From the NCBI RefSeq assembly GCF_900095195.1, contig NZ_LT606950.1, positions 240,001-272,000 of the forward strand: a DNA stretch of 32,000 nucleotides, given 5' to 3'. This DNA comes from Polynucleobacter necessarius. GTDB lineage: Bacteria > Pseudomonadota > Gammaproteobacteria > Burkholderiales > Burkholderiaceae. The position numbers were made by a program, and so were the translations under genes. Numbering within the stretch: position 1 is the first letter of the stretch; the number at the start of each line of letters is the position of its first letter. Below are positions 934-31,535 of the stretch, one piece after another. The notes below the pieces were generated by a model. It did not search any database. It was not told the DNA's origin and was given only the letters and a program-made list of their open reading frames with translations.

Positions 934-1629
934 TTGAAAAGATTGGCAATTATTCCCGCGAGAGGTGGTAGTAAAAGGATACCAAAGAAGAATATTAGGC
1001 TATTTCATGGTAGACCTATGATTCTATGGGTACTGGAGCAAATTAGAGCATCCGATCAGTTTGATGTGATACACGTCTCAACCGATGACAAGGAAACACT
1101 TGAGTTGGTTAGTGCAGCAGGATTTTCGCCCGAATTTATGAGAAATCCAGAGGCTGCAACTGATAGCGCTCCATTGAGTGATGTGAAGAGATATGTATTA
1201 GAGAAATACAGTGAGAGAGGGTTTGAATTTGATATAGTAGGCATATTTTTTGCCACTGCTGTTTTCTTGGACAAAAATTGTATCTCGGATGCTCTTAAGC
1301 AGTTTGAAATTAATAATCAAGTCAATGAAATGATATCCGTAACAAAATTTTCGGTTCCAATTGAGTGGGCATTAAAAATGAACGGTAATGGAATATTGTT
1401 GCCGGTTGATAGTATTGGCATTACAAAAAGATCTCAGGATCTTCCGGTTTCATGGCACGAAACAGGGGAGTTTGTTTTATATAAGGAAAAATCATTCACT
1501 CTTGCACAACAAACCAGAACTTTAAAAGGTGGATATTCAGTGAACCACCTTTCAGTTGACATAGATACTCCTGAGGATTTGGTTAAGGCCGAACAACTTT
1601 TTTATTTAAAAAATCACATACCGCTATAA
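934..1629 (+). CDS. pseF: Pseudaminic acid cytidylyltransferase (CMP-nonulosonate synthetase family)
   Basis: TTG start with AGGA about 8-11 nt upstream. The N-terminus KRLAIIPARGGSKRIPKKN is the acylneuraminate cytidylyltransferase motif. Length is about 230 aa, and the gene sits with pseB/C/G/I. Confidence 0.8.
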   Translation: MKRLAIIPARGGSKRIPKKNIRLFHGRPMILWVLEQIRASDQFDVIHVSTDDKETLELVSAAGFSPEFMRNPEAATDSAPLSDVKRYVLEKYSERGFEFDIVGIFFATAVFLDKNCISDALKQFEINNQVNEMISVTKFSVPIEWALKMNGNGILLPVDSIGITKRSQDLPVSWHETGEFVLYKEKSFTLAQQTRTLKGGYSVNHLSVDIDTPEDLVKAEQLFYLKNHIPL

Positions 1630-1638
1630 TGGATCCAT

Positions 1639-2400
1639 ATGAACATGGAAGATAGTTTCAGTGGGAAAACAGTGCTTATTACTGGAGCCTCAGGTGGTAT
1701 TGGCTCCGCAATTGCATTATTTTTCGCATCCAAAGGAGCGAACTTAATATTATTGGGTCACGATAATTCTGCTCTGATGGAGTCGTTGTTATTTGAGGTA
1801 AAAAAATATGATGTTTCTGTTATTGATATCTTAGGCGATATTTCATCGCCAGTTTTTTGCGATGCCGTTAAATTCACCTCAATTCGGAATTTTAAAAAAG
1901 TTGATATTTTAGTAAACTGCGCTGGAATAATTACTAGAACTCCTTTTGAGCTCATGACCCTTGAAGAGTGGTCGTCTGTAATTAACGTAAACTTAAACGG
2001 CACTTTTAATATGTGTCAAAAATTTATGCCAGACATGGCAAAAAATAATTACGGAAGAGTTGTTAATATTACTTCTCAAATGGCCTTTTTGCCGCATCCT
2101 GGCGCTTCCCCTAGCTACGAAGCTACTAAAGCGGCAATAACCGCCTTCACTAGACATTTAGCAAGTATTTATGCTGGTAAGAATGTGTGTGTAAACTCCG
2201 TTGCGCCAGGTTCAATTAATACTCAACTGCCAAGATCTATGCCTCCCGATGTTAGAAAGGCCTTGGAGCAAAGGATTCCCATGTCAAGACTTGGGGAGCC
2301 TGAGGAGGTGGCTAGTGTTGTTGGATTTCTTTGTTCGGATTCAGCGTCCTACATTACCGGCACTACTATTCACGTAAATGGCGGGACCTTGATGACATAA
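1639..2400 (+). CDS. Short-chain dehydrogenase/reductase (FabG-like 3-oxoacyl reductase family)
   Basis: [18 protein letters not shown] (TGxxxGxG), the YEATKAA (YxxxK) catalytic motif, and the C-terminal [11 protein letters not shown] typical of classical SDRs. Confidence 0.85.
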
Positions 2401-2419
2401 TTTCTGGGGGTGGGGTAAC

Positions 2420-2686
2420 TTGATAAACGTGCGAGAAAAGCTAATTGAATTATTGAAAGAAGCTGGCGTGGTTAATTTTGGAAATAATGTTGATAACTTT
2501 AATTTTATTGACGATGCTGGTTTGGATTCATTTGAAATAATAAATATTATCTCAGATATAGAATCTATTTTAGGCGCTGAATTACCTATGCATGAGCTTG
2601 AAAAAACGGGCTCGCATACCATTTCTGGTTTTGTTAAAGTCGCCGAAGGGGTTATTAGGAGAATTGATGGGGGTAATCTACGATGA
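2420..2686 (+). CDS. Acyl carrier protein-like carrier protein
   Basis: 88 aa. DDAGLDSFEIINIISDIESILG matches the phosphopantetheine attachment motif (Ser codon at 2528-2530). A G-rich SD (ggggtgggg) lies just upstream of the TTG start. Confidence 0.75.
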   Translation: MINVREKLIELLKEAGVVNFGNNVDNFNFIDDAGLDSFEIINIISDIESILGAELPMHELEKTGSHTISGFVKVAEGVIRRIDGGNLR

Positions 2687-4184
2687 ATTATTGCGGGGAT
2701 CAAATAGAACTCCTAACAAAATTGCAGTTATCACTGCAGAAAATATTTCGATTACCTATTCAGAGTTGTGCCTTCTCGTAAGAAAGAGGGCTAATCGGCT
2801 ATTAAAGCTAATCGATTTTAGAAGTGGCGATAATTGCTGTGTTGCGATATTGTATCGAGATGAGTGCGAACAATTAATTACAGTTTTGGCGTTAAATGCC
2901 TGTAATCTCTTTATAGCCCCTATAAATCCAGAGCTAATAGATAGTCAAGTCAAATTGGCCGTTGAATCGGTAGAGGCCAATTACCTTTTGCATGATCTTC
3001 CATATGAACTAGATAATCTTGACATATTATCATTTCAATGCAGAGTCGAAGATGACAGAGCTGAGAATGAAGCAGAGGTGAGGGTTGAGTCCTGTGACTA
3101 CAGCAACTTTTTGGTTACCTTGTCTTCTGGCTCAACGGGTAATCCAAAGCCAATAGTCTTCTCCGAAAAGGCCAAGATTATGCGTTTTATGCATGCAAAA
3201 AATACTTATATGTTGAGCGAAAATGATGTTGTTTTATGTGCATCACCTTTTCACCACTCATTAGGTCAAAGACTTACTTTTTTACCATTATTGTTAGGTG
3301 GGACACTTGTATTCCTAAGAAAATTCTCAAAAGAAACTTGGTACAGCAAAGTCAAGGAGGCAAAAGTTTCATTTACAATAGCCGTCTCCTCCCATCTTAA
3401 TTCCTTGCAAGATGATTTTTTTGAATTTATATCAAAGGGCTCTGATCTAAGAGCGCTTGTTTCATCCTCTGCATTTATTGACGACGAAACCAAAGAGAGA
3501 TTTTTTGCAATATCTAACTTTGATTTTTATGAAATGTACGGAGCATCTGAAGTCGGCACTGCAACAAATTTAAATAAAAATGATCATGTAAGCAAGCGAG
3601 GTTCTGTGGGAAGAGCCTGTGAAAATGTAATTATTGAAATTGTAGATGAACATAAAAAAAGGATTGAAACGCCTTTATCAGTAGGGGAAATAAAAATTAA
3701 ATCCAACACGATTTGTGAAGGTTATTTTAATAGAGACGATCTGAATAGGGAAACGTTTGTAGATGGATACTTTTACACCGGTGATTTGGGTTACCTGGAT
3801 AGAGATGGGTATCTGTACTTTGTAGACAGAAAGAAAGACCTCATCATAACTGGAGGTAGCAATATTTACCCTTCTGATATCGAGGAGGTAATTAGACAGA
3901 TAGAGGGGATTATTGATTGTTGTGTAGTAGGATTTGAGGACAAATATTTGGTTGAGGTACCAGTAGCATTTGTTATTGCACGTGGATCAAAGGTTGAAAT
4001 AGAGCAAAAAATTAGAAAACATGTCAGAAAGAATTTATCCCCATTTCAGAGACCAATTGGATATGCTTTTTATGAATCATTTCCAGTTAATGCCACCGGA
4101 AAACTTGATAAGAAATTACTCAGGGAGCAGGCAAAGCAAAATTTTTCTTCTATAAGCAAAAAATATTTAGCACTCAAAAAATGA
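2667..4184 (+). CDS. ANL-superfamily adenylating enzyme (acyl-CoA/acyl-carrier-protein ligase)
   Basis: TLSSGSTGNPKPIV, YGASEVG and YTGDLGYLDRDGYLYFVDRKKDLIITGGSNIYP are the AMP-binding core motifs. I place the start at ATG 2667 (MGVIYDELL...), which overlaps the ACP 3' end by 20 nt, rather than at the ORF-track start 2592, which lies deep inside the ACP gene. Confidence 0.85.
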   Translation: MGVIYDELLRGSNRTPNKIAVITAENISITYSELCLLVRKRANRLLKLIDFRSGDNCCVAILYRDECEQLITVLALNACNLFIAPINPELIDSQVKLAVESVEANYLLHDLPYELDNLDILSFQCRVEDDRAENEAEVRVESCDYSNFLVTLSSGSTGNPKPIVFSEKAKIMRFMHAKNTYMLSENDVVLCASPFHHSLGQRLTFLPLLLGGTLVFLRKFSKETWYSKVKEAKVSFTIAVSSHLNSLQDDFFEFISKGSDLRALVSSSAFIDDETKERFFAISNFDFYEMYGASEVGTATNLNKNDHVSKRGSVGRACENVIIEIVDEHKKRIETPLSVGEIKIKSNTICEGYFNRDDLNRETFVDGYFYTGDLGYLDRDGYLYFVDRKKDLIITGGSNIYPSDIEEVIRQIEGIIDCCVVGFEDKYLVEVPVAFVIARGSKVEIEQKIRKHVRKNLSPFQRPIGYAFYESFPVNATGKLDKKLLREQAKQNFSSISKKYLALKK

Positions 4185-5779
4185 TCGTATTTAGAGTTAA
4201 TGGATCAAATAGTTCAGGTATTGGACACATTAAGAGGGCAATCAAGTTAGCAAATTCACTCAAAAAAAAATACAAGATTGTTTTTTTGGTGGATGCTATA
4301 CAAAATCTTCCAAGACATTTTGTACCTTCATCATTCAAAATTGTTGAGGTTTATCCTCAAAAGTCGCAATATATCTCCGAGGAAGGGGACGCTAACTTAT
4401 GTATAAATATATTAGAAAGCGAATCAAAAATTAGTGCAGTTGTGGTTGATGACTATAGATTTAGTAAAGTCTGGGAAAAAATTATAAGAAAAAATTTAAC
4501 TCCAAACTTATGTGCATTTGATGATAGAGGGGACGTTGAGCATTGCTGCTCAGTTCTTGTTGACTCAAAATATGATGGTAGGGGAAGCAGCACGAGGTAT
4601 GAAGGCAAAACAAATCCTGAGTGTATAAAACTGCTTGGACCAAATTATTTTTTCTCACCCCAAAGAGTAAAAGATGAATATGATGATAACCGAGACAAAA
4701 GGTCAGTATTAATTACTTTGGGTGGTGGAGGTAATTTAGAAATAATGCTCCCAGTTATTAATAAATTACTCGACGATATTGATCGTGAGGAATTAAAAAA
4801 AATATATCTAATAGAGGGGCCATTTTCAGAAAATGCAGAAAAAATAAAAAGAATCATCAAAGATAGTAGGCTGATAATAATCAAGAATGCACCAGATCTT
4901 ACTGAGTATTTAACGGATGTATCAGTGTATATAGGCAGTTCAGGCACTACGCTATTCGAGGCATTATCACTAGGCTGTTCTTGCCTCTCATTTTCAATAG
5001 CTCAAAATCAACTAAATGATAAAAAAAATCTTGAAGATTTGGGACATTATTTTCATATCAATAATTTTGAAAATTGTAATAAAAATGATTTTGCTTTGCT
5101 TTGCAAGAATTTCTACTTGAAAAGAGAGCGCATCAAGGAGTTGCAAAAGAGCGCGAATGTAAAATTAGATGAGTTTGGTGTTGAAAGGGTTTCTAATCAA
5201 CTGCAAACTCTTATAAGAGGCGACGATAAAGTAGTCCCTATGCAACATAAATATAAAGAGAAAGATAAAAAAGGAGCATTTAGTAAGAAAAATGATAAAT
5301 CTTTTAGAAAGATTAACGATAAAGATGTAAATGCATATTTATACGCAAGAAATTTAAAAAAAAATTCAGACAATATGACAATTAATTCATTGATACCTGA
5401 AGTGGAGCATTACAATTGGTGGTTAACAAATGAAAGAGAATCTTATGTGATGGAGCATAATGGCAAACCAATTTTATACATATGGCACCAAACAAAAATA
5501 GTGGATTCTGAGCTTTACTTATTTGGTGGCTGGTTTATTGCTAGTGAAAAAATATCTCCTTTAGATGTCATGTTGGCGTTAAAATACCAGCTTAATCTGA
5601 CAAATAAAACATACCCTAATGTAACATGGTTGGCGATAATAAAAAAGACAAACAAATTTGTTAAAAAATTAAACGAAAAATATGGATTTAAAATGACCTC
5701 AAATGAAAAATTTGAAATTGCTATAGAAAAAATATTTAATAAGGTTGATAAAAACAGTTTTGACTTTTATTATAAATAA
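4181..5779 (+). CDS. pseG: UDP-2,4-diacetamido-2,4,6-trideoxy-beta-L-altropyranose hydrolase (PseG) fused to a C-terminal GNAT/PseH-like domain
   Basis: The N-terminus IVFRVNGSNSSGIGHIKRAIKLANSL and IGSSGTTLFEALSLGCSCLSF match the PseG GT-B-like fold. A Lys-rich linker follows, then about 150 aa (EVEHYNWWLTNE...KKLNEKYGFKM) resembling PseH-type acetyltransferases. ATGA overlap with the upstream gene. Confidence 0.7.
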   Translation: MIVFRVNGSNSSGIGHIKRAIKLANSLKKKYKIVFLVDAIQNLPRHFVPSSFKIVEVYPQKSQYISEEGDANLCINILESESKISAVVVDDYRFSKVWEKIIRKNLTPNLCAFDDRGDVEHCCSVLVDSKYDGRGSSTRYEGKTNPECIKLLGPNYFFSPQRVKDEYDDNRDKRSVLITLGGGGNLEIMLPVINKLLDDIDREELKKIYLIEGPFSENAEKIKRIIKDSRLIIIKNAPDLTEYLTDVSVYIGSSGTTLFEALSLGCSCLSFSIAQNQLNDKKNLEDLGHYFHINNFENCNKNDFALLCKNFYLKRERIKELQKSANVKLDEFGVERVSNQLQTLIRGDDKVVPMQHKYKEKDKKGAFSKKNDKSFRKINDKDVNAYLYARNLKKNSDNMTINSLIPEVEHYNWWLTNERESYVMEHNGKPILYIWHQTKIVDSELYLFGGWFIASEKISPLDVMLALKYQLNLTNKTYPNVTWLAIIKKTNKFVKKLNEKYGFKMTSNEKFEIAIEKIFNKVDKNSFDFYYK

Positions 5780-7461
5780 TGCCAATAAAGTTACTAAAAA
5801 TATTAGGTAAGAAATGGTTGAGAAAATATATTATTCTCATGTTTGGCTTGTCATTAGCATCGCTACTTGAGGTTTTATCAATAATTACTGTTTATCCATT
5901 TTTAAAAAAGCTAATTTCATCAAATGAAAATAATTTAAATTCTGAATATTTTAGTATCCAAAACTTGAGTTTAGTATTTTGCCTTATTGTAACGACATCA
6001 GCCTTATTCAGGATTTATATAAATAAATTTCAGGGTAGAGTTGGATTTGGAATCGGGGAAGAGATATCGGATCGAATCTATAAAAATTTAATTTATTCTG
6101 ATTATCATGACTATGAAAACATGGGGATCGATAGATTTGTAACCTCTATCTTAAAAAAATCCGACATCATTGCCCAACAGCACATACTACCGTATTTGAA
6201 CTTATTTGTAAACACATTAATATGTATAGGAATTGCGATTATTTTAATTTATATTAATTTAGTAATATCTTTTTATATTTTTTTATTTATTGGAATTTGT
6301 TACTCTACCATTTCACTCATTAACCGCGAAAAAATTATTAATTCCGGAAAATTAGTATCTAGATGTCTATCTAGCATTAATCAGATATTAAATATTACTT
6401 ATGAAGGTTTTATTGAGAATAAAATTTATAGAAATGAGAAATTCTTCCAATCAAAATTTGAACTATTAAATAAGGAATTGAATGAAAATTTAAGAAAAAT
6501 AGATTTTCTTAGAATTTATCCAAGATTTCTAATTGAAAGTTTGGGGGTGGTTTTTCTTTGCCTTATGGGGTACTATTTGCTACTCAATGGAGAACGGATG
6601 GATGTGGTTTTGCCGATGTTGGGAACAGTTGCATTCAGCGCGCAAAGAATGATTCCATCCGCGCAACAAATATATTATTCATGGAGTGCAATTAAATCCT
6701 CAAAGTATATATGCGAAGAAATAATTGATTATCTAAAAATTAAACAGGAAGATTTATCGGAAGAAATTTATCCTCTGCAGCATATAGAAAAAATTCATTT
6801 TGAAAATGTCAAATATAAATTTGAGGGTGAAAATAATTCAATATTACACAATATTAATTTCAGATTTAAAAAAGGCGAGAGAATAGGAATCATTGGCCAA
6901 TCTGGTTCAGGAAAGTCAACTCTATTAAGGCTTTTAATTGGAATATTGAATCCATCAAGTGGAAAAATCACCTTAAACCAAGGTATTAATTTAAGTGAAA
7001 ACAAGAGATTTCTTTGGAGTAGAATTTCATACATATCGCAGAAGATGACTCTCTTCCCAGGAACAATAGCAGATAATATAGCACCCGAATTAGCTTCAAT
7101 TCACCAATCTATGAGTAGGATTGAAAATGCTGCTAAATCTGCCAAGATATCTAGTTTTGTTGAAGGTTTGCCTTGTAAATATCAAACCAAAGTTGGTGGA
7201 AGTTCTTTTTTACCATCGCCGGGTCAAATCCAAAGAATCATTTTGGCAAGAGCACTATACAGAGAGCCTGAAATATTGATTTTGGATGAATTTACAAGCG
7301 CCCTAGATGCATCAACAGAGATAGCCATAATATCTGAAATATTAGATCTATTTAAAGACAAGTCAATCTTGATGGTGAGCCATAAGAAATCGACGTTGAA
7401 TTTGTGTGATAAGGTTTATGTAATTAAAGATGGAAATATTGAACTATTGTATGAAAAATAA
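5779..7461 (+). CDS. ABC exporter, fused permease-ATPase (PglK/MsbA-like)
   Basis: Six predicted TM helices, then Walker A GQSGSGKST, signature-like PSPGQIQRI (a degenerate LSGGQ), Walker B ILILDEFTSALD and H-loop MVSHK. PRFLIESLGVVFLCL and SAQRMIPSAQQIY parallel the PglK segments as I recall them. The start overlaps the pseG stop (TAATG). Confidence 0.85.
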   Translation: MPIKLLKILGKKWLRKYIILMFGLSLASLLEVLSIITVYPFLKKLISSNENNLNSEYFSIQNLSLVFCLIVTTSALFRIYINKFQGRVGFGIGEEISDRIYKNLIYSDYHDYENMGIDRFVTSILKKSDIIAQQHILPYLNLFVNTLICIGIAIILIYINLVISFYIFLFIGICYSTISLINREKIINSGKLVSRCLSSINQILNITYEGFIENKIYRNEKFFQSKFELLNKELNENLRKIDFLRIYPRFLIESLGVVFLCLMGYYLLLNGERMDVVLPMLGTVAFSAQRMIPSAQQIYYSWSAIKSSKYICEEIIDYLKIKQEDLSEEIYPLQHIEKIHFENVKYKFEGENNSILHNINFRFKKGERIGIIGQSGSGKSTLLRLLIGILNPSSGKITLNQGINLSENKRFLWSRISYISQKMTLFPGTIADNIAPELASIHQSMSRIENAAKSAKISSFVEGLPCKYQTKVGGSSFLPSPGQIQRIILARALYREPEILILDEFTSALDASTEIAIISEILDLFKDKSILMVSHKKSTLNLCDKVYVIKDGNIELLYEK

Positions 7462-8086
7462 ATTTCAGAATGCGGGGTACGTTGAGCCTTTTTGTCCTGT
7501 TTATTTAAGAAAATTCATTGCTCGATGGATTAATGGTGGTGAAATCTTGGATTATGGTTGTGGGTACGGAGGGTGGACAAAAAAAATTAAGGAAATTTTC
7601 CCAAAATCATCTATATCAGCATTTGATATAGATGCTCAGGCGATGATGAGTACTGAAGAGAGCTTAAATATTTTGAATAAATTTAGTCGAGATAAATTAT
7701 ATGACGCAATATTTTTGAATTTTGTAGTTGATGTTATTGATAATGATGCAGAGGTAATTCAAGTTCTTGCAGATATAAATAGCCTGTTAAAACCTGGCGG
7801 CAGAGCGATAATAATGTATACGCCTTACGAAAAATATTCCCTCAGATGGATTTTTTATAGGCTTAATTCACTTAATGTTAAAGAATGGCATGATAAATAT
7901 CGATTCCAGAGGGTTTATTATAGCTCTAATGAACTATTTAATATAATTGAGAATTCTGGGTTCAAAATTTTAGACATTATTAAACCCAGATTTTTTCACA
8001 AATCTGGAGTATTGCTAAATAGAGTGCTTCAAATATTGCCCATTTACTTTCATTCACTGATAGTGTTTTCGGTTGAGAAAAGGTAA
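7430..8086 (+). CDS. Class I SAM-dependent methyltransferase
   Basis: ILDYGCGYGGWT (motif I) and LKPGGRAIIM (post-I/II). An alternative start at ATG 7451 cannot be excluded. Confidence 0.75.
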   Translation: MEILNYCMKNKFQNAGYVEPFCPVYLRKFIARWINGGEILDYGCGYGGWTKKIKEIFPKSSISAFDIDAQAMMSTEESLNILNKFSRDKLYDAIFLNFVVDVIDNDAEVIQVLADINSLLKPGGRAIIMYTPYEKYSLRWIFYRLNSLNVKEWHDKYRFQRVYYSSNELFNIIENSGFKILDIIKPRFFHKSGVLLNRVLQILPIYFHSLIVFSVEKR

Positions 8087-8090
8087 AATT

Positions 8091-9113
8091 GTGCTATCTA
8101 TTAAAATTAGCCCTAAATTTTTCTTTTTATTCTTTTTTTTAGTTTTAAATATATGTTTATTTTATAAAACACCCATAGATAAAATTGACTTTAGGGAGCT
8201 TTTTAAATTATTATTTCCAACCCTCTCAATTTTTTTTGCATTATTTCTTAATTATCAACAATTAAAATTTCTTTTTAAGATACTATTTGTTGTCTTATTG
8301 ACCCATATCGCATTATCATTTTTATTTGAATTTATTTTTAATGCCTCAATTTTTTCCAAAAGCAGCGATAATAGGTACTATCTAACCCTTTTGGGTAGAA
8401 GCGCTGGAGAAACTGCTTTAGCATTTTATGTGCTTTACGTTTCAACTTTTTATTTTATGATTTTTAATAATTCTCTTGAAAAGAACAAAAATACCTTATT
8501 GTTTCTATTTTTTATGGTCATTAATGTCTGTATCTTAACGCAATCAAGAACCTGGATTCTCGTTTTTGCAATATTTTTTTCCTTAGTGTCCATAATGGGG
8601 AATTTAAATAATTATAAAAAATTTATACTCTACAAATCAAAAATTATTATATTATATTCGATTGTTACTACGATAAATATCGTATATACAGGCTACTTTA
8701 ATATTTTATCGCAAAGGATGTCGCATTCATTATTGTCCGGCAGGGTTGAAATTTGGCAAGAATATCAAAAATCGGTGGGTAAATTAAGTCCTGTTGAGTT
8801 TTTAGTTGGTAAAAGTCTTGAGCGTAAAACTCTCAAAAATGAAGATAAGGGTATAGAAACTTCCGATACGCACAATATGTTTATTGATATTTCGCAGACT
8901 TATGGGATCTTAGGTTGTATTTTATTGATTTTTTCTTACTTAATTTCGATTTTTAAAAGCCAGCCTAATTTATCCTTACCAATCATTATTGCATTTTGCA
9001 TAACGGGTTTCGTTATGAGTCCATTTAAAGTTCCGTATTTATTTTATACAAATATTTTATTGCTTATAATTCCACTTCTTTACCATCGTAGGGTTTCTCA
9101 CCCACACCCTTAG
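8091..9113 (+). CDS. O-antigen polymerase/ligase-like (Wzy_C) polytopic membrane protein
   Basis: About 10 hydrophobic segments, extremely AT-rich. QSRTWILVFAIFF and SDTHNMFIDISQTYGILGCILLIF resemble Wzy_C loop motifs. I prefer GTG 8091 (SD-like gagaaaagg upstream, no overlap) over the ORF-track TTG 8073. Confidence 0.55.
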   Translation: MLSIKISPKFFFLFFFLVLNICLFYKTPIDKIDFRELFKLLFPTLSIFFALFLNYQQLKFLFKILFVVLLTHIALSFLFEFIFNASIFSKSSDNRYYLTLLGRSAGETALAFYVLYVSTFYFMIFNNSLEKNKNTLLFLFFMVINVCILTQSRTWILVFAIFFSLVSIMGNLNNYKKFILYKSKIIILYSIVTTINIVYTGYFNILSQRMSHSLLSGRVEIWQEYQKSVGKLSPVEFLVGKSLERKTLKNEDKGIETSDTHNMFIDISQTYGILGCILLIFSYLISIFKSQPNLSLPIIIAFCITGFVMSPFKVPYLFYTNILLLIIPLLYHRRVSHPHP

Positions 9114-9149
9114 TGTATAATTTATTTTTTATTAGCTGGATTAATATTC

Positions 9150-10142
9150 GTGTTTAAAAATTCCTCATTATTAATTACTGGCGGCACGGGTTCATTTGGT
9201 AATGAGTTTCTAGCATCCTGCCTTTTAAATGACGATATTAAAAAAGTTGTCATTTTTTCACGCGATGAAATGAAGCAGTGGGAAATGTCGAAGAGATTTA
9301 GTCATGAACCTAGAGTTCGCTTTTTTATTGGCGATATCAGAGACAAAGATAGGCTCATGCGTGCATTGGATGGTATTGATTATGTTGTACATGCCGCAGC
9401 ACTTAAGATTGTTCCAACAGCTGAGTACAATCCATTTGAATGTATCAAAACTAATATTTTAGGAGCAATGAATTTAATAGATGCCTGTATAGATAAGGGC
9501 GTAAAGCGTTTAGTGGCCTTATCTACAGATAAGGCAAGCAGCCCAATTAATTTATATGGGGCAACAAAACTTGCTTCTGATAAATTGTTCGTGGCAGCTA
9601 ACTCTTATTCTGGTCAGCACGATACTAGATTTTCGGTCGTTCGATATGGCAATGTCATGGGTTCCAGAGGCTCTGTGATACCTTTTTTTTGGAACATGCG
9701 TGATCAAAAGGAATTGCCAATTACTGATCTAGCAATGACGAGATTTATGATTACCCTTGACCAGGGGGTCAAACTGGTTTGGAATGCACTTGAAGACATG
9801 CATGGTGGCGAGATATACGTAAAGAAAATTCCTTCTATGAAAGTGATTGATATTGCCCATAACATCGCCCCTATGGCGCAGCATAAAATCGTTGGGATAC
9901 GCCCCGGAGAGAAAATTCATGAGCAGATGATTGGGATCGAGGATGCGGCTTTCACATACGAGTACGATGATTTTTACAAGATACTACCAAGTATCAACCT
10001 TCGAGGAGATATCGAGCTAATGTCGCGTGGCGGAAAATTAGTGGATAAAAACTTTTCCTATACGAGTGACAATAATACCGATTGGATGCAACCTAAAGTT
10101 TTAGCTGCTTGGATTAAAGCAAATTTATCTAAAGAGATATAA
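9150..10142 (+). CDS. pseB: UDP-N-acetylglucosamine 4,6-dehydratase (inverting)
   Basis: GTG start. LLITGGTGSFGNEF, YGATKLASDKLF (YxxxK) and RYGNVMGSRGSVIP are typical PseB/FlaA1 signatures. About 330 aa. Confidence 0.9.
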   Translation: MFKNSSLLITGGTGSFGNEFLASCLLNDDIKKVVIFSRDEMKQWEMSKRFSHEPRVRFFIGDIRDKDRLMRALDGIDYVVHAAALKIVPTAEYNPFECIKTNILGAMNLIDACIDKGVKRLVALSTDKASSPINLYGATKLASDKLFVAANSYSGQHDTRFSVVRYGNVMGSRGSVIPFFWNMRDQKELPITDLAMTRFMITLDQGVKLVWNALEDMHGGEIYVKKIPSMKVIDIAHNIAPMAQHKIVGIRPGEKIHEQMIGIEDAAFTYEYDDFYKILPSINLRGDIELMSRGGKLVDKNFSYTSDNNTDWMQPKVLAAWIKANLSKEI

Positions 10143-10143
10143 G

Positions 10144-11295
10144 TTGATTCCTTACGCGCGCCAAAGTATCTCGGAGGAAGATATTGAAGCTGTCAATAGA
10201 GTCCTAAAATCAGATTTTCTTACTCAAGGCCCCGTAGTACCCCTCTTTGAAAATGCAATTAAGAAATACTGTAAGGTTGATCACGCAGTAGTTACGAGCA
10301 GCGCAACATCAGCACTTCATATTGCTTGCATGGCTTTAGATGTTGGCCCTGGTGATCTGGTGTGGACTAGCCCAAATTCTTTCGTAGCCTCTGCTAACTG
10401 TGCGTTGTATTGTGGTGCGCAGATCGATTTTGTTGATATTGATTCAGTTACCATGAATATATCAATTGAAAGTCTAGCTGCTAAATTGAAGCTGGGCAAA
10501 ATCCCCAAAGTAGTAATCGCAGTCCATTTTGCAGGAACCTCCTGTGATATGCGATCAATCAAAAGGCTTTCTGATCAATATGGTTTTAAGATAATTGAGG
10601 ATGCCTCTCATGCGATTGGAGGAAGTTATATTAATAATAAAATTGGATCGTGCGAATTTAGCGATGTCACGGTACTAAGCTTTCATCCAGTTAAGATTAT
10701 TACTACTGGTGAGGGCGGCGCCTTATTGACCAATGATGAGAAGATAGCCGATAGGGCGGTGCTTTTAAGATCTCATGGTATCAACAGGGCACTTACCAAA
10801 AGTGATTCTCAAAATAAACCCTGGTTTTATGAGCAAATTGAATTGGGGTTTAACTATCGAATGACAGATATACAAGCTGCGCTTGGGCTTTCTCAGCTTG
10901 AGCGCATTAATGAATTCGTGGATAAACGTCTAATGATTGCGTCAAAGTATGAATTTATGCTTTCTCCTATAGGCTTAAAGTTGCCTGAATTGAGCAGGAA
11001 TAAAGGCTCTGCGTATCATCTTTATGTCATTCAAATACCTGACATATCGGAAGTTCAAAAAGTCTTGATTTTTAAAGGTCTTAATAGTTTGGGGATAAGT
11101 GCAAATGTTCACTATATTCCAATTCATCTCCATCCCTTCTATAAAGCTTTAGGATTTCAAATTGGGGACTTTCCAATTGCTGAAAAATATTATCTCGAGG
11201 CGTTAAGTTTGCCAATGTATCCGGGGTTGGCCGATAAAGACCTCGAACATATCTGCTTCTCATTGAAAACAATGTTAAATCAAAAACTAAATTGA
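10144..11295 (+). CDS. pseC: UDP-4-amino-4,6-dideoxy-N-acetyl-beta-L-altrosamine transaminase
   Basis: TTG start. MIPYARQSISEEDIEAVNRVLKSDFLTQGP is the characteristic PseC N-terminus. PLP-Lys context SFHPVKIITTGEGG. Lies immediately after pseB. Confidence 0.9.
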   Translation: MIPYARQSISEEDIEAVNRVLKSDFLTQGPVVPLFENAIKKYCKVDHAVVTSSATSALHIACMALDVGPGDLVWTSPNSFVASANCALYCGAQIDFVDIDSVTMNISIESLAAKLKLGKIPKVVIAVHFAGTSCDMRSIKRLSDQYGFKIIEDASHAIGGSYINNKIGSCEFSDVTVLSFHPVKIITTGEGGALLTNDEKIADRAVLLRSHGINRALTKSDSQNKPWFYEQIELGFNYRMTDIQAALGLSQLERINEFVDKRLMIASKYEFMLSPIGLKLPELSRNKGSAYHLYVIQIPDISEVQKVLIFKGLNSLGISANVHYIPIHLHPFYKALGFQIGDFPIAEKYYLEALSLPMYPGLADKDLEHICFSLKTMLNQKLN

Positions 11296-12185
11296 TTAAT
11301 AAATTTACCAAAAGAATTTCAATTGGAACTGCTCAATTTGGAAGCGCTTATGGAATCGCAAATAGAGTTGGGGAGGTTAGCGAAGACCACATCGCAGAGA
11401 TGTTGACACAAGCAAAATTAAATGGAATTAAAAAATTAGATACAGCACCCTCTTATGGAAATGCTGAGTCTAAATTAGGTAAGTACGGGGTTAAAGATTT
11501 TGAAATTACTACTAAGGTCTCAAAAATTCCACCCGAAGTCGATGATATTCGTGGCCATATAACCAGAGAAGTTGATAGCTCCATTATAAGGCTTGGAGTA
11601 AATTGTATAGACACAGTGTTATTTCATAATGAAAAAGATTTGGAAGGTCATCGGGGTTACTTAGCATATCAAGCGCTGTATGATCTACAGCTTCAAGGAC
11701 TTGTAAAAAAAATTGGAGTTTCGACTTACTTTAGTGACAGTTTAGAGGCAGCGCTAAGAGAATATAAATTTCAAACTATACAGGTGCCATACAGCATAGT
11801 TGATAGAAGGCTGGAATTTTTTAATTCAAGGTTAGATCTTTATGGGATTGGCATTCAAGCTAGGTCTATTTTTTTACAAGGACTTCTTCTTTTGCAAGCA
11901 AAAGAAGCTATGAAGAGATGCAAAGCATGGGGTAGTAAAGCAGCCGCTTGGAGCTTATTTTTGAATGAAAATAAATGTGCCGCTTATGATGCGGCCCTTT
12001 ATTTCGGGTTATCAAATAGCAATATAGAGACATTTGTGGTGGGTCTGGACAGTTTAGAGCAATTGCAAATGCTTTTGTACTCATTAAAAAGTTTTAATGG
12101 TAACAAATGGCTTTCAATTGAACAGCTAAAGTCTGAAGATGAGAATTTATTAAATCCTTTTGCGTGGAAGAGACTCGATGAATAA
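11292..12185 (+). CDS. Aldo/keto reductase family oxidoreductase
   Basis: ISIGTAQFGSAYGIAN and LDTAPSYGNAE (the Asp/Tyr of the AKR tetrad). TTGA overlap with the pseC stop. Confidence 0.75.
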   Translation: MINKFTKRISIGTAQFGSAYGIANRVGEVSEDHIAEMLTQAKLNGIKKLDTAPSYGNAESKLGKYGVKDFEITTKVSKIPPEVDDIRGHITREVDSSIIRLGVNCIDTVLFHNEKDLEGHRGYLAYQALYDLQLQGLVKKIGVSTYFSDSLEAALREYKFQTIQVPYSIVDRRLEFFNSRLDLYGIGIQARSIFLQGLLLLQAKEAMKRCKAWGSKAAAWSLFLNENKCAAYDAALYFGLSNSNIETFVVGLDSLEQLQMLLYSLKSFNGNKWLSIEQLKSEDENLLNPFAWKRLDE

Positions 12186-13491
12186 AAGTAAAAAAGGTTT
12201 GGAACTATGGGGCCGGGCAAAAAAAGTGATCCCCGGCGGAAATATGTTGCTGTCCAAGAGATCGGAAATGTTTCTTCCAGAGAGGTGGCCCAGCTACTTT
12301 GATAAAAGTCGTGGTTGCACGGTCTGGGATTTAGATGGGAACTCTTATGTTGATATGTCGATAATGGGGATTGGAACCAACAGTCTAGGTTATGGGCATA
12401 AAGATGTTGATAAAGCTGTCATGGAGGTGGTTCAAAAAGGCAATATGTCAACCTTTAACTGCCTTGAGGAGGTTCTCCTTGCTGAAAAACTATTAGAGCT
12501 TCACCCATGGGCGGACATGGTTCGACTTGCGAGGACAGGTGGCGAGGCAAATGCAATAGCAATACGCATTGCGCGTGCGGCATCAGGGCGTGATGGGGTG
12601 GCAATATGTGGCTATCATGGTTGGCATGATTGGTATTTATCTGCAAACATACGTAATAATAATCAACTTTCCGATCATCTTTTACCCGGACTATCACCGA
12701 ATGGTGTTCCAAACAATCTTGGAGGAACGGTATTCCCATTTAGGTATAACAATACTGATGAATTTATGAAGGTCATTACCGAAAATGATATCGGGGTAGT
12801 CAAAATGGAGGTATGTCGCAATGAGCGTCCAGCACCAGGTTTTTTAGAATTTATACGCGATGAAACCAAGAAGCGTGGAATTGTGCTGATTTTTGACGAG
12901 TGCACCTCTGGATTCCGAGAAACATATGGGGGGTTGCATTTGAAATATGGCGTTAACCCTGATATGGCAGTATTTGGAAAGGCGCTAGGTAATGGGTACG
13001 CTATTACAGCGGTAATCGGATCAAAAAATATTATGGAGGCAGCGCAATCAACCTTCATAAGCAGTACTTTTTGGAGCGAGAGAATTGGACCCGCAGCAGG
13101 TATTGCAACTTTAGATGTAATGAAGAAACTTAAATCATGGGAAATAAATTCAGAGACTGGAGAGAGAATAAAAGAGCTCTGGAAATTAATTTCTATAGAA
13201 AATAAAGTGCCGATTAAAGTTTCAGGATTATCTTCGATACCATCATTTAGTTTTGATTCACCCAATCACTTGGCTTTGAAAACATTTTTGACTCAAGAGA
13301 TGTTAAAAAAGGGTTACTTAGCTACACCTCTGATCTTTGTATGCACTAAACATGAAGAACTGATTGTCAAAAGATATGGCCAAGTTCTCAATGATGTATT
13401 TCGTGAAATAAGTCACCTACATGAATTTGAACAAATAGTTAGCCGTTTGGATGGACCGGTATGTCATGATGGTTTTAAAAGACTAAACTAA
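12178..13491 (+). CDS. Class III PLP aminotransferase (glutamate-1-semialdehyde 2,1-aminomutase-like)
   Basis: VIPGGNMLLSKRSEMF...WDLDGNSYVDM, FDECTSGFR and FGKALGNGY (PLP Lys). I place the start at ATG 12178 (MNKSKKG...), which overlaps the upstream stop. Confidence 0.8.
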   Translation: MNKSKKGLELWGRAKKVIPGGNMLLSKRSEMFLPERWPSYFDKSRGCTVWDLDGNSYVDMSIMGIGTNSLGYGHKDVDKAVMEVVQKGNMSTFNCLEEVLLAEKLLELHPWADMVRLARTGGEANAIAIRIARAASGRDGVAICGYHGWHDWYLSANIRNNNQLSDHLLPGLSPNGVPNNLGGTVFPFRYNNTDEFMKVITENDIGVVKMEVCRNERPAPGFLEFIRDETKKRGIVLIFDECTSGFRETYGGLHLKYGVNPDMAVFGKALGNGYAITAVIGSKNIMEAAQSTFISSTFWSERIGPAAGIATLDVMKKLKSWEINSETGERIKELWKLISIENKVPIKVSGLSSIPSFSFDSPNHLALKTFLTQEMLKKGYLATPLIFVCTKHEELIVKRYGQVLNDVFREISHLHEFEQIVSRLDGPVCHDGFKRLN

Positions 13492-13530
13492 GAACAGCTA
13501 TTCGATTGCAAGATTGAACTAAAATAAAAA

Positions 13531-14571
13531 ATGAAAATAGGCAAACATACAATTTCAAGCATTACAGATCCGCTGATTATTGCAGAAGTATCAGGTAATC
13601 ATAATGGTAGTTTAGATATTGCACTTAAGTTAGTAGATGCGGCAGCGCAAGCTGGAATTAAAGTCATTAAATTGCAGACATATACACCCGATACCATCAC
13701 TATGAATCATGATGGTAAGGAGTTTTTAATTGAAGATAGAAAAAGTTTATGGTTTGGTAGAACTTTATACAACCTATACAAAGAAGCATATACTCCATGG
13801 GAGTGGCAGAAGGAGATTTTTTTGCACGCATCCAGGATGGGCGTGCAGTGTTTCAGTTCAGTATTCGATGAATCCTCGGTAGATTTTTTAGAGTCAATTG
13901 AATGTCCAGCCTATAAGATTGCATCTCAAGAATGCGTACACATACCGTTAATTGAGTATGTAGCTCAGACTGGTAAGCCCATCATTATTTCGACTGGAAT
14001 GGCATCTTTAGGTGAAATAGAAACTGCAATTAATGCCTTTTCAAGAAAAAGTTCTGCTGCTTATAGCATCATGAAGTGCACAAGCCAATATCCGGCAGAT
14101 CCAAGAAATTCAAACGTTCTCACAGTTCCCTACATGAAAAAAATATTTGGTTGCGAGGTGGGGCTTTCAGATCATACTTTGGGTGTAGGTGCCTCGTTGG
14201 CTGCAATTGCACATGGCGCAACATTCATAGAAAAACATATTACGCTCAGCAGAAAAGATGGTGGAGTTGATGGCGCATTTTCCCTTGAGCCAAACGAATT
14301 CAAAATGCTCAATGATGAGGCATCGAGAGTGAAACTTTCTCTTGGAAAAGTGAGGTTTGGCCCAGTCGAAGATGAAATTGCCTCCCTTCAAGGAAGGCGC
14401 TCAATTTACGCAGCGGCCGATATCAAAGCGGGTGAAAAATTTACTAAAGATAACATTCAAGTAATCAGGCCATCAGGTGGCATTGAACCAAAATCATACC
14501 GCCTAATTTTAGGCAAATCCGCTATAAGCGATATAAAAAGAGGTACGCCTTTAAATTGGGATTTGATGTGA
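13531..14571 (+). CDS. pseI: Pseudaminic acid synthase (NeuB family)
   Basis: IIAEVSGNHNGSLDIALKLVDAAAQAGIKVIKLQTYTPDTIT plus a C-terminal SAF-like domain (RRSIYAAADIKAGEKFTKDNIQVIRPSGG). About 346 aa. Confidence 0.9.
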   Translation: MKIGKHTISSITDPLIIAEVSGNHNGSLDIALKLVDAAAQAGIKVIKLQTYTPDTITMNHDGKEFLIEDRKSLWFGRTLYNLYKEAYTPWEWQKEIFLHASRMGVQCFSSVFDESSVDFLESIECPAYKIASQECVHIPLIEYVAQTGKPIIISTGMASLGEIETAINAFSRKSSAAYSIMKCTSQYPADPRNSNVLTVPYMKKIFGCEVGLSDHTLGVGASLAAIAHGATFIEKHITLSRKDGGVDGAFSLEPNEFKMLNDEASRVKLSLGKVRFGPVEDEIASLQGRRSIYAAADIKAGEKFTKDNIQVIRPSGGIEPKSYRLILGKSAISDIKRGTPLNWDLM

Positions 14572-14624: not shown

Positions 14625-14660
14625 AAAACTATTTGAAATTTTGATTTCAAATAGTTTTTT
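14625..14660 (+). terminator. Rho-independent-type hairpin closing the pseF...pseI gene block
   Basis: Perfect 11-bp stem ctatttgaaat (14629-14639) / atttcaaatag (14644-14654), 4-nt loop, then T6 (14655-14660), preceded by A4. The stem is AT-rich, so stability is modest. Confidence 0.5.
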
Positions 14661-14761
14661 GTAGCGATAATTAGTCTGCAAATGTGTTAAAAGACCAGGC
14701 TTCGCACCGAGCCATAATTAATTTAGATTTAAGAAAAGTTCCAAAATTTTTTATTTTTGCT

Positions 14762-15787
14762 ATGACAAAAAGTGATAAAGATATTAAGAAGTTGACTATT
14801 GTATTGCCGACATACAATGCAAGAAAATCCATTACAAGGGCCGTGGATTCAGTTCTAAATTTGCTGAATGATTCAGAACTTAGTACAGAGCTAATTGTAA
14901 TTGATGATTATTCAGATGATGATACATTCGAAATAATTAATAAAAATTATTCAGCATTTTCTAACATATATATATATAAAAATGCAAAGAATGAAGGCCC
15001 AGGAAAAACAAGAAATAGCGCATTAGAAAAAATTTCAAGCGGGTATGTAGGGTTTATTGATTCGGATGATCAGTTAAACCCTACCACCTATAAAAAAGCA
15101 TTCCTAGATGGTTTGATCAAAAATGCTGATTTAATAACATTTGATGTTGCAACTATTATGCCAACAAAATCAATACTCAGATATGACTATGATAGAGTTG
15201 GGGGTGATAAATTTAATTTGGTTAGAAATTGCATCAAAGGGGATCTGGATGGATCTGTAATATTTAGTATTTACAAAAAATCAATGCTTGATAACTTTAG
15301 AATAAAGTTTTCTTCAAACTACTATGAGGACATAGTATTTAATTATTCGGCTATTATGTCCTCCGATAGTATTCATGTGGCAAAAGAAATTTGCTACAAA
15401 AAATACTGCACTCCAAAATCAATACTAAACTCAATATCTGAAAAGCATATTGACGGAATGATAGACGCTTCTATCTTGGTTAGAGATTTTGCAATTCGTA
15501 ATGGTTACTCTACATATAAAGAATTTAAATCTGATTTCGACTATTGTCTTTCTGGTTATATTGCCTCATTAGTTATAGATATCTTGAAGCATGAAAAAAG
15601 TATCGATCGATCTATCAGTCTTCTAAAATATCTTCACCAAAAGCTAGAGCGTTGTTTTAGAATGGGAAATATAGCCACGAGAGTCGATACCAAAAAAGAC
15701 AGATTAAGTAATTTTTTCATAAATAATTTTGATACTAGTAGGTTAAATATAACCATTGGTCGGTTAAAGGAGTTGATTGAATTATGA
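14762..15787 (+). CDS. Family 2 glycosyltransferase
   Basis: LTIVLPTYNARKSITRAVDSVLN, LIVIDDYSDDDT and GFIDSDD (DxD). Start placed at ATG 14762 (MTKSDKD...), whereas the ORF track begins at 14684. Confidence 0.8.
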   Translation: MTKSDKDIKKLTIVLPTYNARKSITRAVDSVLNLLNDSELSTELIVIDDYSDDDTFEIINKNYSAFSNIYIYKNAKNEGPGKTRNSALEKISSGYVGFIDSDDQLNPTTYKKAFLDGLIKNADLITFDVATIMPTKSILRYDYDRVGGDKFNLVRNCIKGDLDGSVIFSIYKKSMLDNFRIKFSSNYYEDIVFNYSAIMSSDSIHVAKEICYKKYCTPKSILNSISEKHIDGMIDASILVRDFAIRNGYSTYKEFKSDFDYCLSGYIASLVIDILKHEKSIDRSISLLKYLHQKLERCFRMGNIATRVDTKKDRLSNFFINNFDTSRLNITIGRLKELIEL

Positions 15788-17777: not shown

Positions 17778-17806
17778 AACTCTATTTTATTATCAAGGAT
17801 TAATTG

Positions 17807-26142: not shown

Positions 26143-26200
26143 TGTGCCTGCCTAAAATTTATAAATACTTCTGTTTTATGAATGAATCCAACATTGTAAG

Positions 26201-26233
26201 CAAAACGCCGCCTTTTGGGCGGCGCTTTGTTTT
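26201..26233 (-). terminator. GC-rich hairpin terminator after the binding-protein gene (potentially bidirectional)
   Basis: Stem cgccgcc (26206-26212) / ggcggcg (26218-26224), 5-nt loop, flanked by A4 on one side and ctttgtttt on the other. On the minus strand it reads gcgccgcc-caaaa-ggcggcg-TTTTG. Confidence 0.6.
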
Positions 26234-26284
26234 ATCCAATGTTGCAGTGCAACAAGTACTTATTGCCTGCGACTGAAGATCAGA

Positions 26285-27469: not shown

Positions 27470-27607
27470 AATGTCTCCATGACTAAAAATGCGAATGAAA
27501 TAAAACTTTTTTATATTTACTACAACTGACGAACGATTATCTTACCGTGATTGCCAAAGCAAAAAAAGGGGCTGCTATTAGGGTTTTACATTAGCGTGTT
27601 GAGTGGG

Positions 27608-29115
<1,508 letters not shown>

Positions 29116-29116
29116 A

Positions 29117-29419: not shown

Positions 29420-29432
29420 TCGAGTCATTCCA

Positions 29433-30776: not shown

Positions 30777-30781
30777 GATCG

Positions 30782-31526: not shown

Positions 31527-31535
31527 ATAGCTGGA

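Follow-up and report, generated by a model that had tools for sequence, protein, structure and literature searches.

Pseudaminic acids (Pse) are found on the flagella, capsules and lipopolysaccharides (LPS) of many pathogenic and environmental bacteria, where their N-acyl groups govern both antigenicity and how phages and antibodies recognise them. For several Pse derivatives only a mass is available, among them the Aeromonas sugars of 376 Da in AH-3 and 403 Da in AH-1, whose structures are unsolved (PMC4691044). Group II flagellin islands of Aeromonas carry an acyl carrier protein (ACP), a 3-oxoacyl-ACP reductase and an AMP-dependent synthetase, with the reductase lying between the other two, and AH-3, which has this ACP-type module, makes a Pse derivative of 376.14 Da; in group I islands an aldo/keto reductase (AKR) and a class III aminotransferase (AT3) are interleaved with the pse genes, and PseG/PseH chimeras have also been described in Aeromonas islands (PMC7874193). 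The AKR/AT3 pair is likewise held by the LPS clusters of Legionella pneumophila Sg6/12 (PMC3694923), and in Moritella a bifunctional cytidylyltransferase-AKR protein follows PseC (PMC7371886). In Acinetobacter baumannii, EpaA (CTP_transf_3 plus AKR) and EpaB, a short-chain dehydrogenase/reductase (SDR), have been shown experimentally to convert Pse5Ac7Ac to its 8-epimer (PMC12053666), and ElaA, ElaB and ElaC have been proposed from structures and docking to act on CMP-Leg via an 8-keto intermediate (PMC13656337). Here we analyse 32,000 nucleotides of Polynucleobacter necessarius DNA (contig NZ_LT606950.1, positions 240,001 to 272,000; hereafter the window), in which a Pse biosynthetic block at positions 934-14571 holds both an ACP module and an AKR/AT3 pair.

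Families were assigned by Pfam and NCBIfam profile searches, with the NCBI curated equivalog cut-offs as thresholds, and these support a locus that encodes the Pse pathway together with extra enzymes that Pse5Ac7Ac does not need. We think it reasonably likely, on comparative sequence evidence, that the locus directs N7-acylation from a carrier protein and, separately, AKR/AT3 tailoring of a CMP-activated Pse derivative. Since both associations with pse genes are already published for Aeromonas, the locus is not categorically new; an acyl-ACP-dependent replacement of PseH is what we predict from it. All named genes of the block lie on the plus strand with overlapping or abutting ends in the open reading frame (ORF) listing, as an earlier note on this DNA had described. 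The gene calls of a 99%-identical metagenomic contig, L001, give junctions of −20 to +39 nt, and 13 of 13 ORFs are intact and translationally coupled. Their order is PseF-like protein, SDR, carrier protein, ANL enzyme, PseG protein, ABC exporter, methyltransferase, Wzy_C protein, PseB, PseC, AKR, AT3 and PseI; the genes named in the earlier note are all present, and it had left out the ABC transporter, methyltransferase and Wzy_C genes at 5779-9113. The ANL and PseG proteins of the window are the cluster members WP_162784563.1 and WP_114661823.1, which together with WP_114661834.1 lie on one P. necessarius contig; an exact look-up of the PseI sequence returned no record. The genes on which the argument turns are as follows.

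934-1629, plus strand: pseF-like CMP-pseudaminic acid synthetase (CTP_transf_3; PF02348, 80 bits; best NCBIfam match TIGR03584)
1639-2400, plus strand: FabG-like SDR, placed in the carrier-protein module (adh_short_C2, 190 bits; YEATK motif)
2420-2686, plus strand: acyl/peptidyl carrier protein of 88 amino acids (PF00550, PP-binding; LDS motif with Ser37, codon 2528-2530)
2667-4184, plus strand: ANL adenylate-forming enzyme of 505 amino acids, proposed acyl-ACP ligase (PF00501, 163.9 bits; PF13193, 50.7 bits)
4181-5779, plus strand: PseG (UDP-sugar hydrolase, residues 1 to about 346; TIGR03590) fused to a divergent GNAT domain (residues about 371-532, DNA about 5291-5779; AlphaFold2 and Foldseek)
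9150-10142, plus strand: pseB, inverting UDP-GlcNAc 4,6-dehydratase (TIGR03589, 516.8 bits, passing the cut-off of 407.75)
10144-11295, plus strand: pseC, DegT-type UDP-4-amino-4,6-dideoxy-N-acetyl-beta-L-altrosamine transaminase (TIGR03588, 515.3 bits, passing the cut-off of 423.5)
11292-12185, plus strand: AKR of a pse-cluster-specific subfamily (PF00248 Aldo_ket_red, 96 bits; D50/Y55/K75/H112 tetrad readable)
12178-13491 (ORF 12160-13491), plus strand: AT3, a class III (GSA-aminomutase-like) pyridoxal phosphate aminotransferase of 437 amino acids (PF00202 Aminotran_3, 125.6 bits)
13531-14571, plus strand: pseI, phosphoenolpyruvate (PEP)-condensing pseudaminic acid synthase (TIGR03586, 437.5 bits, passing the cut-off of 340.25; NeuB and SAF domains)
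20281-20811, plus strand: stand-alone GNAT of 176 amino acids with an intact acyl-CoA motif, a possible second N-acyltransferase (Acetyltransf_3, 67.5 bits; PseH model, 29.9 bits)

The earlier note had proposed a candidate for every canonical Pse step. This stands at equivalog level for PseB, PseC and PseI, and for PseF and PseG as best matches that fall under the curated cut-offs: the PseF-like protein, which is 49% identical to pseF of a marine locus (L018), reaches 164 bits against 205.7 with TIGR03584, and the 532-residue PseG protein, labelled 'hypothetical protein' in RefSeq, reaches 136.7 bits against 153.55 with TIGR03590, its only match, over residues 2-283. For PseH there is no separate gene; a cryptic GNAT-fold domain lies within the PseG protein itself. 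No protein of the window reaches the PseH model TIGR03585, the stand-alone GNAT giving 29.9 bits against a cut-off of 93.1, and residues ~371-532 of the fusion have no match in Pfam or NCBIfam. A profile built from 13 homologues of this C-terminal domain retrieved MJ1062 alone from the PDB sequences (E = 0.51). The fold was recognised from AlphaFold2 models. In the model of the full fusion (pLDDT 86), the N-terminal part gives C. jejuni PseG (3hbn/3hbm) as top Foldseek match with a TMt of 0.70-0.74, and the C-terminal domain modelled separately (pLDDT 94.6) adopts a GNAT fold with TM scores of 0.64-0.73 to many GNATs, its neighbours including the PseH structures 4xpk and 4ri1 and the 3-hydroxybutanoyl transferase FdhC. 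The fusion has residues that are invariant across 16 homologues. An alignment of the fusion GNAT domains with stand-alone GNATs revealed that the R/Q-x-x-G-x-G/A acyl-CoA motif after strand 4 is missing from the fusion domains, which have SEKISPLD or EKETNFQS in its place; the stand-alone GNATs of the same loci retain it (AGRGLAT, WGKGVAT). The fusion GNAT domain, which profile searches do not place in the PseH family, is the candidate for the PseH step.

Directly upstream of the fusion are the genes that could supply it with an acyl group. The serine codon of the carrier protein was read at 2528-2530, exactly where the earlier note had put it; L001 calls an 85-residue product, and the start in the window may be 2429. 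Phosphopantetheinylation of the carrier protein is a prediction, and no dedicated phosphopantetheinyl transferase gene was found within the 32 kb. Proteins at the equivalent position in other loci also match PP-binding, with 34.3 bits in L010 and 23 bits in L004. The ANL gene starts at 2667 rather than at 2592 as the ORF finder had it, because the RefSeq product WP_162784563.1 is 505 residues long. At least 2929 of 8000 scored candidates are ANL homologues at E <= 1e-20, and most of the 120 listed lack a species name or are metagenomic, those with names coming mainly from Gammaproteobacteria. The nearest solved relatives are MenE, FadD13, luciferases and malonyl- and oxalyl-CoA ligases, with no DltA-type enzyme among them at E <= 1e-30, so by sequence the enzyme appears to resemble acyl, aryl or short dicarboxylate CoA ligases more than amino-acid-adenylating enzymes. 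Loading of D-alanine in the manner of DltA/DltC, or of another amino acid, was judged less likely on these grounds. Where the earlier note had left the N-acyl group between a hydroxyacyl and an aminoacyl type, the ANL relatives therefore make a (hydroxy)acyl or keto-acid type likelier; the exact acyl chemistry, as the note had anticipated, is not readable from the sequence.

The SDR, whose nearest solved structures are FabG enzymes, gives 218 bits with the 3-oxoacyl-ACP reductase model TIGR01830 and falls under its cut-off of 297.75. In L001, L018, L022, L023 and L024 the order SDR-ACP-ANL-PseG/GNAT is kept, at 51-54% identity in the last four. We place the SDR in the carrier-protein module because its conserved neighbour is the ACP, and because in L022-L024 a glycosyltransferase of the GT2 type and a radical SAM protein separate it from pseF. 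The assignment of the SDR as a sugar reductase of the ElaC/EpaB type is disfavoured by this synteny, and is kept as a rival.

Comparative genomics gives strong support to the carrier-protein idea of the earlier note. GTDB genomes and JGI metagenomes scanned with the fusion alignment, together with the contexts of ANL homologues, yielded 40 loci. In a tblastn census of these, every one of the 32 related loci whose flank is usable has an ANL gene no more than 5 kb from the PseG-GNAT fusion. Of the other eight, seven end within 1.5 kb downstream of the fusion and the eighth, from Leptospira, serves as a negative control, having an unfused PseG followed by an ordinary PseH and no ANL gene. A small ACP gene lies beside the ANL or fusion gene wherever one is detectable, and in L029 an ORF of 80 amino acids occupies that position. 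Fusion loci span Pseudoalteromonas, Alteromonas, Rheinheimera, Shewanella, Oceanospirillales, Thiotrichales, Methylocystaceae, Rhodospirillales and Magnetovibrio, and three arrangements can be distinguished.

Type A (window, L001, the P0002 contig, L018/L019, L022-L024): pseF-(GT2-radical SAM)-SDR-ACP-ANL-fusion, with AKR-AT3-pseI nearby where flank is available
Type B (Alteromonas, Pseudoalteromonas, Shewanella maritima, Rheinheimera, Oceanospirillales, Thiotrichales, Methylocystaceae, Rhodospirillales, Magnetovibrio): pseF-fusion-Gfo/Idh/MocA-pseI-ACP-ANL, with genes for FkbM methyltransferases and a radical SAM/SPASM protein often coming next
Type C (marine contigs): fusion, 80-residue ORF and distant ANL gene, then, on the annotation of L029 only, LuxE, LuxC, a FabA-like protein, a GMC oxidoreductase, an SDR and a transketolase

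The accessory genes are thus associated phylogenomically with pse genes, an association already described in Aeromonas. In the type B loci L004, L010 and L020 the pse genes occur with flagellin genes and Maf; the Alteromonas island L010, which lies between flagellin/FleQ and Maf, has no other GNAT, and the fusion GNAT is its only N-acyltransferase candidate. The full gene combination of the window recurs in the P0002 contig, L018/L019 and L022, at ANL identities of ~41-68%. In the abundant marine type A lineage of L018/L019, toxin-antitoxin-like genes (PIN/DUF6364 and HEPN/nucleotidyltransferase pairs) are inserted among the pse genes at 2760-5789.

Conserved partners of this module also lie downstream of the block, beyond a hairpin.

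14625-14658, plus strand: A/U-only hairpin of 15 bp followed by a T run, terminator-like or attenuating (folding free energy −15.8 kcal/mol; z = −5.05 against shuffles)
14684-15787, plus strand: GT2 glycosyltransferase (Glycos_transf_2, 78 bits)
15784-17100, plus strand: radical SAM protein (CX3CX2C; Radical_SAM, 46 bits)

In L022-L024, pseF and the radical SAM/SDR genes have a homologue of the GT2 protein (36-40% identity) between them, and homologues of the radical SAM protein (42-52%) lie directly upstream of SDR-ACP-ANL in the same loci; L018 and type B loci have other radical SAM types at the equivalent position. Conservation of both genes with SDR-ACP-ANL-PseG/GNAT indicates that the functional unit probably extends past 14571 and past the hairpin. 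The earlier note had the block ending at a hairpin terminator; the hairpin is indeed present, though missed by a terminator scan that requires GC, but it does not mark the end of the conserved gene set. Comparison of the radical SAM genes of the window (15784-17100), L018 (7162-8913) and L010 (18005-19036) showed that such a protein accompanies the ACP/ANL/fusion core in all three locus types, the subfamily differing between plain, B12-binding and SPASM. Its presence may point to a radical reaction, such as C-methylation, at the acyl group or at the sugar. A simple 3-hydroxybutanoyl group made by the SDR-ACP-ANL module is possible; the conserved radical SAM partner suggests something more elaborate. 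By our own arithmetic, the 376.14 Da of the AH-3 derivative equals Pse5Ac7Ac (316.13) plus 60.02, a difference that could arise if a C4H6O3 acyl group took the place of one acetyl.

The AKR and AT3 appear to form a module of their own. The earlier note had counted all five accessory genes as one acyl-building unit, and this cannot be upheld, as the pair is separate, widespread without ACP or ANL, and in its relatives often fused to cytidylyltransferase. The aminotransferase, identical (100%) to P. necessarius WP_114661834.1, belongs to a family of at least 8000 members, all 8000 scored candidates having E <= 1e-30. Sources of the best 120 homologues are diverse (Leptospira, Azoarcus, Enterobacterales, Gammaproteobacteria), and 78 of these 120 are proteins of ~675 amino acids with an N-terminal CTP_transf_3 (SpsF/KdsB-like) domain; among its nearest relatives of solved structure are enzymes for the amination of sugar aldehydes and of beta-keto-acyl groups. 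When the full library was searched with the AKR, CTP_transf_3-AKR and GNAT-AKR fusions came up within its subfamily (32-41% identity). Clusters with neither ACP nor ANL are exemplified by Leptospira jelokensis, with pseC-AKR-[CTP+AT3]-pseG-pseH-pseI, and by an abundant marine lineage with pseB-pseC-AKR-[CTP+AT3]-deacetylase-[formyltransferase+GNAT]-DUF218-pseI. The pair likewise occurs in pse clusters that lack ACP and ANL in Legionella Sg6/12 (PMC3694923), marine Gammaproteobacteria and Aeromonas group I (PMC7874193). These fusions and ACP-less clusters tie the pair to the nonulosonic acid or the CMP step, not to the carrier protein, and by analogy with EpaA/EpaB it probably tailors the finished or CMP-linked sugar. 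In the literature we found no described function for the pair. A more specific proposal, which we put forward tentatively and regard as quite unlikely to be right, is that the AKR/AT3 module, present in thousands of pse clusters and often with one partner fused to cytidylyltransferase, oxidises the C8 hydroxyl of Pse or CMP-Pse and transaminates the ketone to give a 5,7,8-triamino-pentadeoxy-nonulosonic acid, which here, with the carrier module and two GNATs, would be doubly or triply N-acylated. The window AKR found no match in phage genomes by tblastn, and a scan of IMG/VR gave one weak locus (25%).

The proposed pathway would run as follows. By family membership, PseB and PseC would convert UDP-GlcNAc to UDP-4-amino-4,6-dideoxy-beta-L-AltNAc. 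The ANL enzyme would adenylate a small carboxylic acid and load it onto the 88-residue carrier protein, on which the FabG-like SDR, and probably the radical SAM protein as well, would tailor the tethered acyl group, for instance from 3-oxo to 3-hydroxy. The GNAT domain fused to PseG would then take the acyl group from the carrier protein rather than from acetyl-CoA and transfer it to the 4-amino group of the UDP-sugar (N7 of Pse), after which the PseG domain of the same polypeptide would remove UDP. PseI would condense the freed hexose with PEP and the PseF-like enzyme would add CMP, again by family membership. Together with the cytidylyltransferase, AKR and AT3 may act on the finished or CMP-linked nonulosonic acid, the likeliest keto intermediate being at C8 (or C4), where it would be reduced or transaminated. 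Neighbouring glycosyltransferases, including a polysialyltransferase-like protein, are predicted to use the derivative, and a PglK-like exporter and Wzy_C proteins to build the surface glycan. Acyl-ACP-dependent acylation of the 4-amino group is the best reading of the coupling of ANL to the fusion, the fusion to PseG itself, the lack of another acyltransferase in such loci and the missing CoA motif.

Several points weigh against this proposal. The carrier protein passes PF00550 only marginally (21.4 bits against a gathering score of 20.8). The missing acyl-CoA motif is read from alignments of just 12-38% identity, which makes it supportive rather than conclusive, and loss of the motif need not prevent a GNAT from binding acetyl-CoA; with its motif intact, the stand-alone GNAT at 20281-20811 could be the real PseH, or a canonical PseH could be encoded elsewhere in these genomes. 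FabG-like SDRs also act as CMP-8-keto-nonulosonate reductases (ElaC, EpaB), so that the SDR adjoining pseF could belong with the AKR. An ACP is not needed for simple hydroxyacyl groups, since A. baumannii makes Pse5Ac7(3-hydroxybutanoyl), or Pse5Ac7RHb, with variant psaG/psaH only and no ACP (PMC9676051). For the same gene types, the authors of the Aeromonas study proposed a lipid ('liposugar') role (PMC7874193), and on the tailoring side the searched literature holds no triamino nonulosonic acid and no 8-amino Pse derivative.

The alternative that best survives assigns the SDR, AKR and AT3 all to tailoring of the nonulosonic acid, by C8 epimerisation or amination in the style of EpaA/EpaB or ElaABC, and leaves ACP and ANL to O-acylate Pse, to acylate another sugar or to provide a lipid anchor, with the fusion GNAT or the stand-alone GNAT simply acetylating from acetyl-CoA. 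EpaB and ElaC are indeed FabG/KAR-like SDRs that work on nonulosonic acids (PMC12053666, PMC13656337), the SDR of the window abuts pseF, and the stand-alone GNAT with intact CoA motif is at hand, a 35% homologue of it adjoining pseF in L018; a lipid component was, moreover, the suggestion of the Aeromonas authors (PMC7874193). However, the neighbour that the SDR keeps in L022-L024 is the ACP and not pseF or the AKR, just as the Aeromonas reductase lies between ACP and AMP-synthetase (PMC7874193). Types B and C have ACP, ANL and fusion without the AKR/AT3 pair, type B also without an SDR of the window type; type B islands have no other GNAT, and no O-acyltransferase family is consistently present in these loci. 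On balance we regard this alternative as unlikely. Still less probable is that AKR and AT3 make the acid for ANL, from amine to aldehyde to alcohol as for 4-hydroxybutanoate, with the five accessory genes in one acyl line. A class III aminotransferase with an AKR is the classic pairing of gamma-aminobutyrate transaminase and succinic-semialdehyde reductase, 4-hydroxybutanoyl and hydroxybutanoyl groups occur as N-acyl groups on nonulosonic acids, and both modules stand together in the window, the P0002 contig, L018 and L022; yet AKR and AT3 occur overwhelmingly without ANL or ACP, including in Aeromonas group I (PMC7874193), their fusions to cytidylyltransferase or GNAT domains point to the sugar, and most loci with fusion, ACP and ANL lack the pair. 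Least probable of all is that the product is plain Pse5Ac7Ac or a simple variant derived from CoA, the accessory genes being hitch-hiking or decaying cargo of a horizontally acquired island in an eroding genome, with no effect on the glycan. In favour of this, there are pseudogene-like fragments right beside the island (24.8-29.2 kb), its GC content of 27-42% departs from the 43-49% of the flank, and PseF and PseG fall under their curated cut-offs. Against it, the block has no broken ORF; every one of its genes is conserved in another lineage, with 68% identity for ANL, and the same accessory set recurs in a different order at ~41-44% in L018 and L022; and the 61-87% identity across the 119 non-identical homologues closest to the aminotransferase speaks of very strong constraint on this enzyme.

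Around the pathway genes, the window encodes the following functions for export and assembly of a surface glycan.

10-846: second Wzy_C protein, the first ORF of the window (C-terminal part of a protein of 473 amino acids in L001)
5779-7461, plus strand: fused transmembrane and nucleotide-binding domain ABC exporter, PglK/MsbA-like (ABC_tran, 101 bits; best NCBIfam match PglK, 215.8 bits, far under cut-off)
7430-8086 (likely start 7451), plus strand: S-adenosylmethionine-dependent methyltransferase (Methyltransf_23, 49 bits; product of 211 amino acids in L001)
8073-9113 (likely start 8091), plus strand: Wzy_C-domain membrane protein of polymerase or ligase type (PF04932, 36 bits; product of 340 amino acids in L001)
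18570-19229: initiating sugar transferase (Bac_transf)
19222-20268: polysialyltransferase-like protein (PF07388, alpha-2,8-polysialyltransferase family, 55 bits)

The ABC exporter is a probable flippase for a lipid-linked glycan, and its adjacency to pseB recurs outside Polynucleobacter, a homologue (27-29%) lying directly upstream of pseB in the marine type C loci L029, L031, L036 and L043. The polysialyltransferase-like protein, encoded beside the Bac_transf gene, could serve as transferase or polymerase for the Pse derivative. Genes for two more glycosyltransferases and for a WbuC-cupin/DegT pair are present as well. Neither flagellin nor Maf genes were found in the 32 kb, and the window is not a flagellin island of the Aeromonas type; together with the Wzy_C proteins, the exporter and the initiating and polysialyl-like transferases, this suggests that the derivative is probably part of a surface polysaccharide or lipooligosaccharide. 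Two ORFs have no Pfam or NCBIfam match: 17268-17777 (169 amino acids), the only sizeable minus-strand gene inside the island, and 17804-18592 (262 amino acids), a 37% homologue of which directly follows the fusion gene in the metagenomic locus L021.

Upstream of the window start, L001 (1-8180) encodes an epimerase/dehydratase, a DegT aminotransferase of 450 amino acids, a thiamine-diphosphate enzyme of 622 amino acids, a HAD hydrolase, a second NeuB-family synthase (366 amino acids, ~26% identical to PseI, no SAF) and another epimerase. The 68%-related contig has the set as well. These genes suggest that the island holds a second, unusual pathway of ulosonic-acid type. The GC content given above refers to positions 1-24000 for the glycan island and 25000-32000 for the right flank, and the difference suggests horizontal acquisition. 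Between 24800 and 29200 the right flank holds only short ORF fragments of proteins that are normally longer: two LivH-like permease pieces (87 and 95 amino acids), an EamA transporter split into ORFs of 213 and 124 amino acids, a C-terminal GMC oxidoreductase fragment (178 amino acids) and a cation-antiporter-like piece of 87 amino acids. These look like pseudogene decay, in keeping with the reduced genome of P. necessarius, and it is of note that the adjoining 24-kb glycan island is fully intact in a bacterium with decaying genes next to it. Scans of the window for tRNAs and Rfam families were empty.

Two testable rules follow from the analysis. One is that a PseG-GNAT fusion without the CoA motif would mark carrier-protein-dependent N7-acylation and always travel with an ACP and an adenylating enzyme; the other, that AKR and class III aminotransferase would constitute a separate, cytidylyltransferase-linked module in very many pse clusters. 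Either rule, if true, would mean a new enzymatic step in the biosynthesis of nonulosonic acids and would improve the prediction of glycan structures from sequence.

Set against the CMP-Pse5Ac7Ac pathway of C. jejuni and H. pylori, the window has PseB, PseC and PseI at equivalog level, a PseG domain whose best structural match is the C. jejuni enzyme, and a PseF-like protein. It differs in having no stand-alone PseH, the N-acyltransferase candidate being the PseG-fused GNAT without CoA motif, and in adding seven enzymes, namely SDR, ACP, ANL, AKR, AT3, radical SAM protein and methyltransferase. The 4-amino-2-hydroxybutyrate (AHBA) side chain of butirosin depends on the carrier protein BtrI, the ATP-grasp ligase BtrJ and the acyltransferase BtrH, which is not a GNAT. 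There too a small carrier protein reserved for the purpose bears the acyl group while it is built and tailored, before transfer to the amine of an aminosugar, as proposed for the window; the enzyme families differ, and the analogy is one of mechanism. For a possible role of AKR and AT3 the closest precedent is Shewanella Kdo8N, in which KdnB, a dehydrogenase of the iron alcohol dehydrogenase type, and the aminotransferase KdnA replace an ulosonic acid hydroxyl by an amine ahead of CMP activation; again the families differ, and the compound acted on is an octulosonic acid that carries a primary alcohol. The sfmABCDE genes of Shewanella oneidensis were considered as a match and set aside as a different gene set.

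Like psaG/psaH and FdhC (PDB 5ktc), the window would use a GNAT-type enzyme to put a non-acetyl acyl group on a sugar amine; unlike the window GNAT, which lacks the CoA motif and keeps company with ACP and ANL, those systems use a CoA thioester and need neither. Compared with the Aeromonas islands, where the two modules define separate groups, the window combines them in one operon-like block, and in a non-flagellar setting with Wzy_C proteins, a PglK-like ABC exporter, an initiating transferase and a polysialyltransferase-like glycosyltransferase. It is the type C loci that resemble Aeromonas group II; LuxE and LuxC, present in these marine loci, do not occur in the window. EpaA/EpaB and ElaABC are accessory oxidoreductases with a functional link to a cytidylyltransferase, and they modify a completed 5,7-diamino nonulosonic acid via a keto intermediate, a scheme that the window may share; EpaB and ElaC are FabG-like SDRs. 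Some relatives of the window AKR, with 36-41% identity to it, have the architecture of EpaA (CTP_transf_3 plus AKR), a likeness at the level of domains. In contrast to EpaA, the AKR of the window is unfused and its regular partner is a class III aminotransferase instead of an SDR, which suggests amination rather than, or as well as, epimerisation of the sugar.

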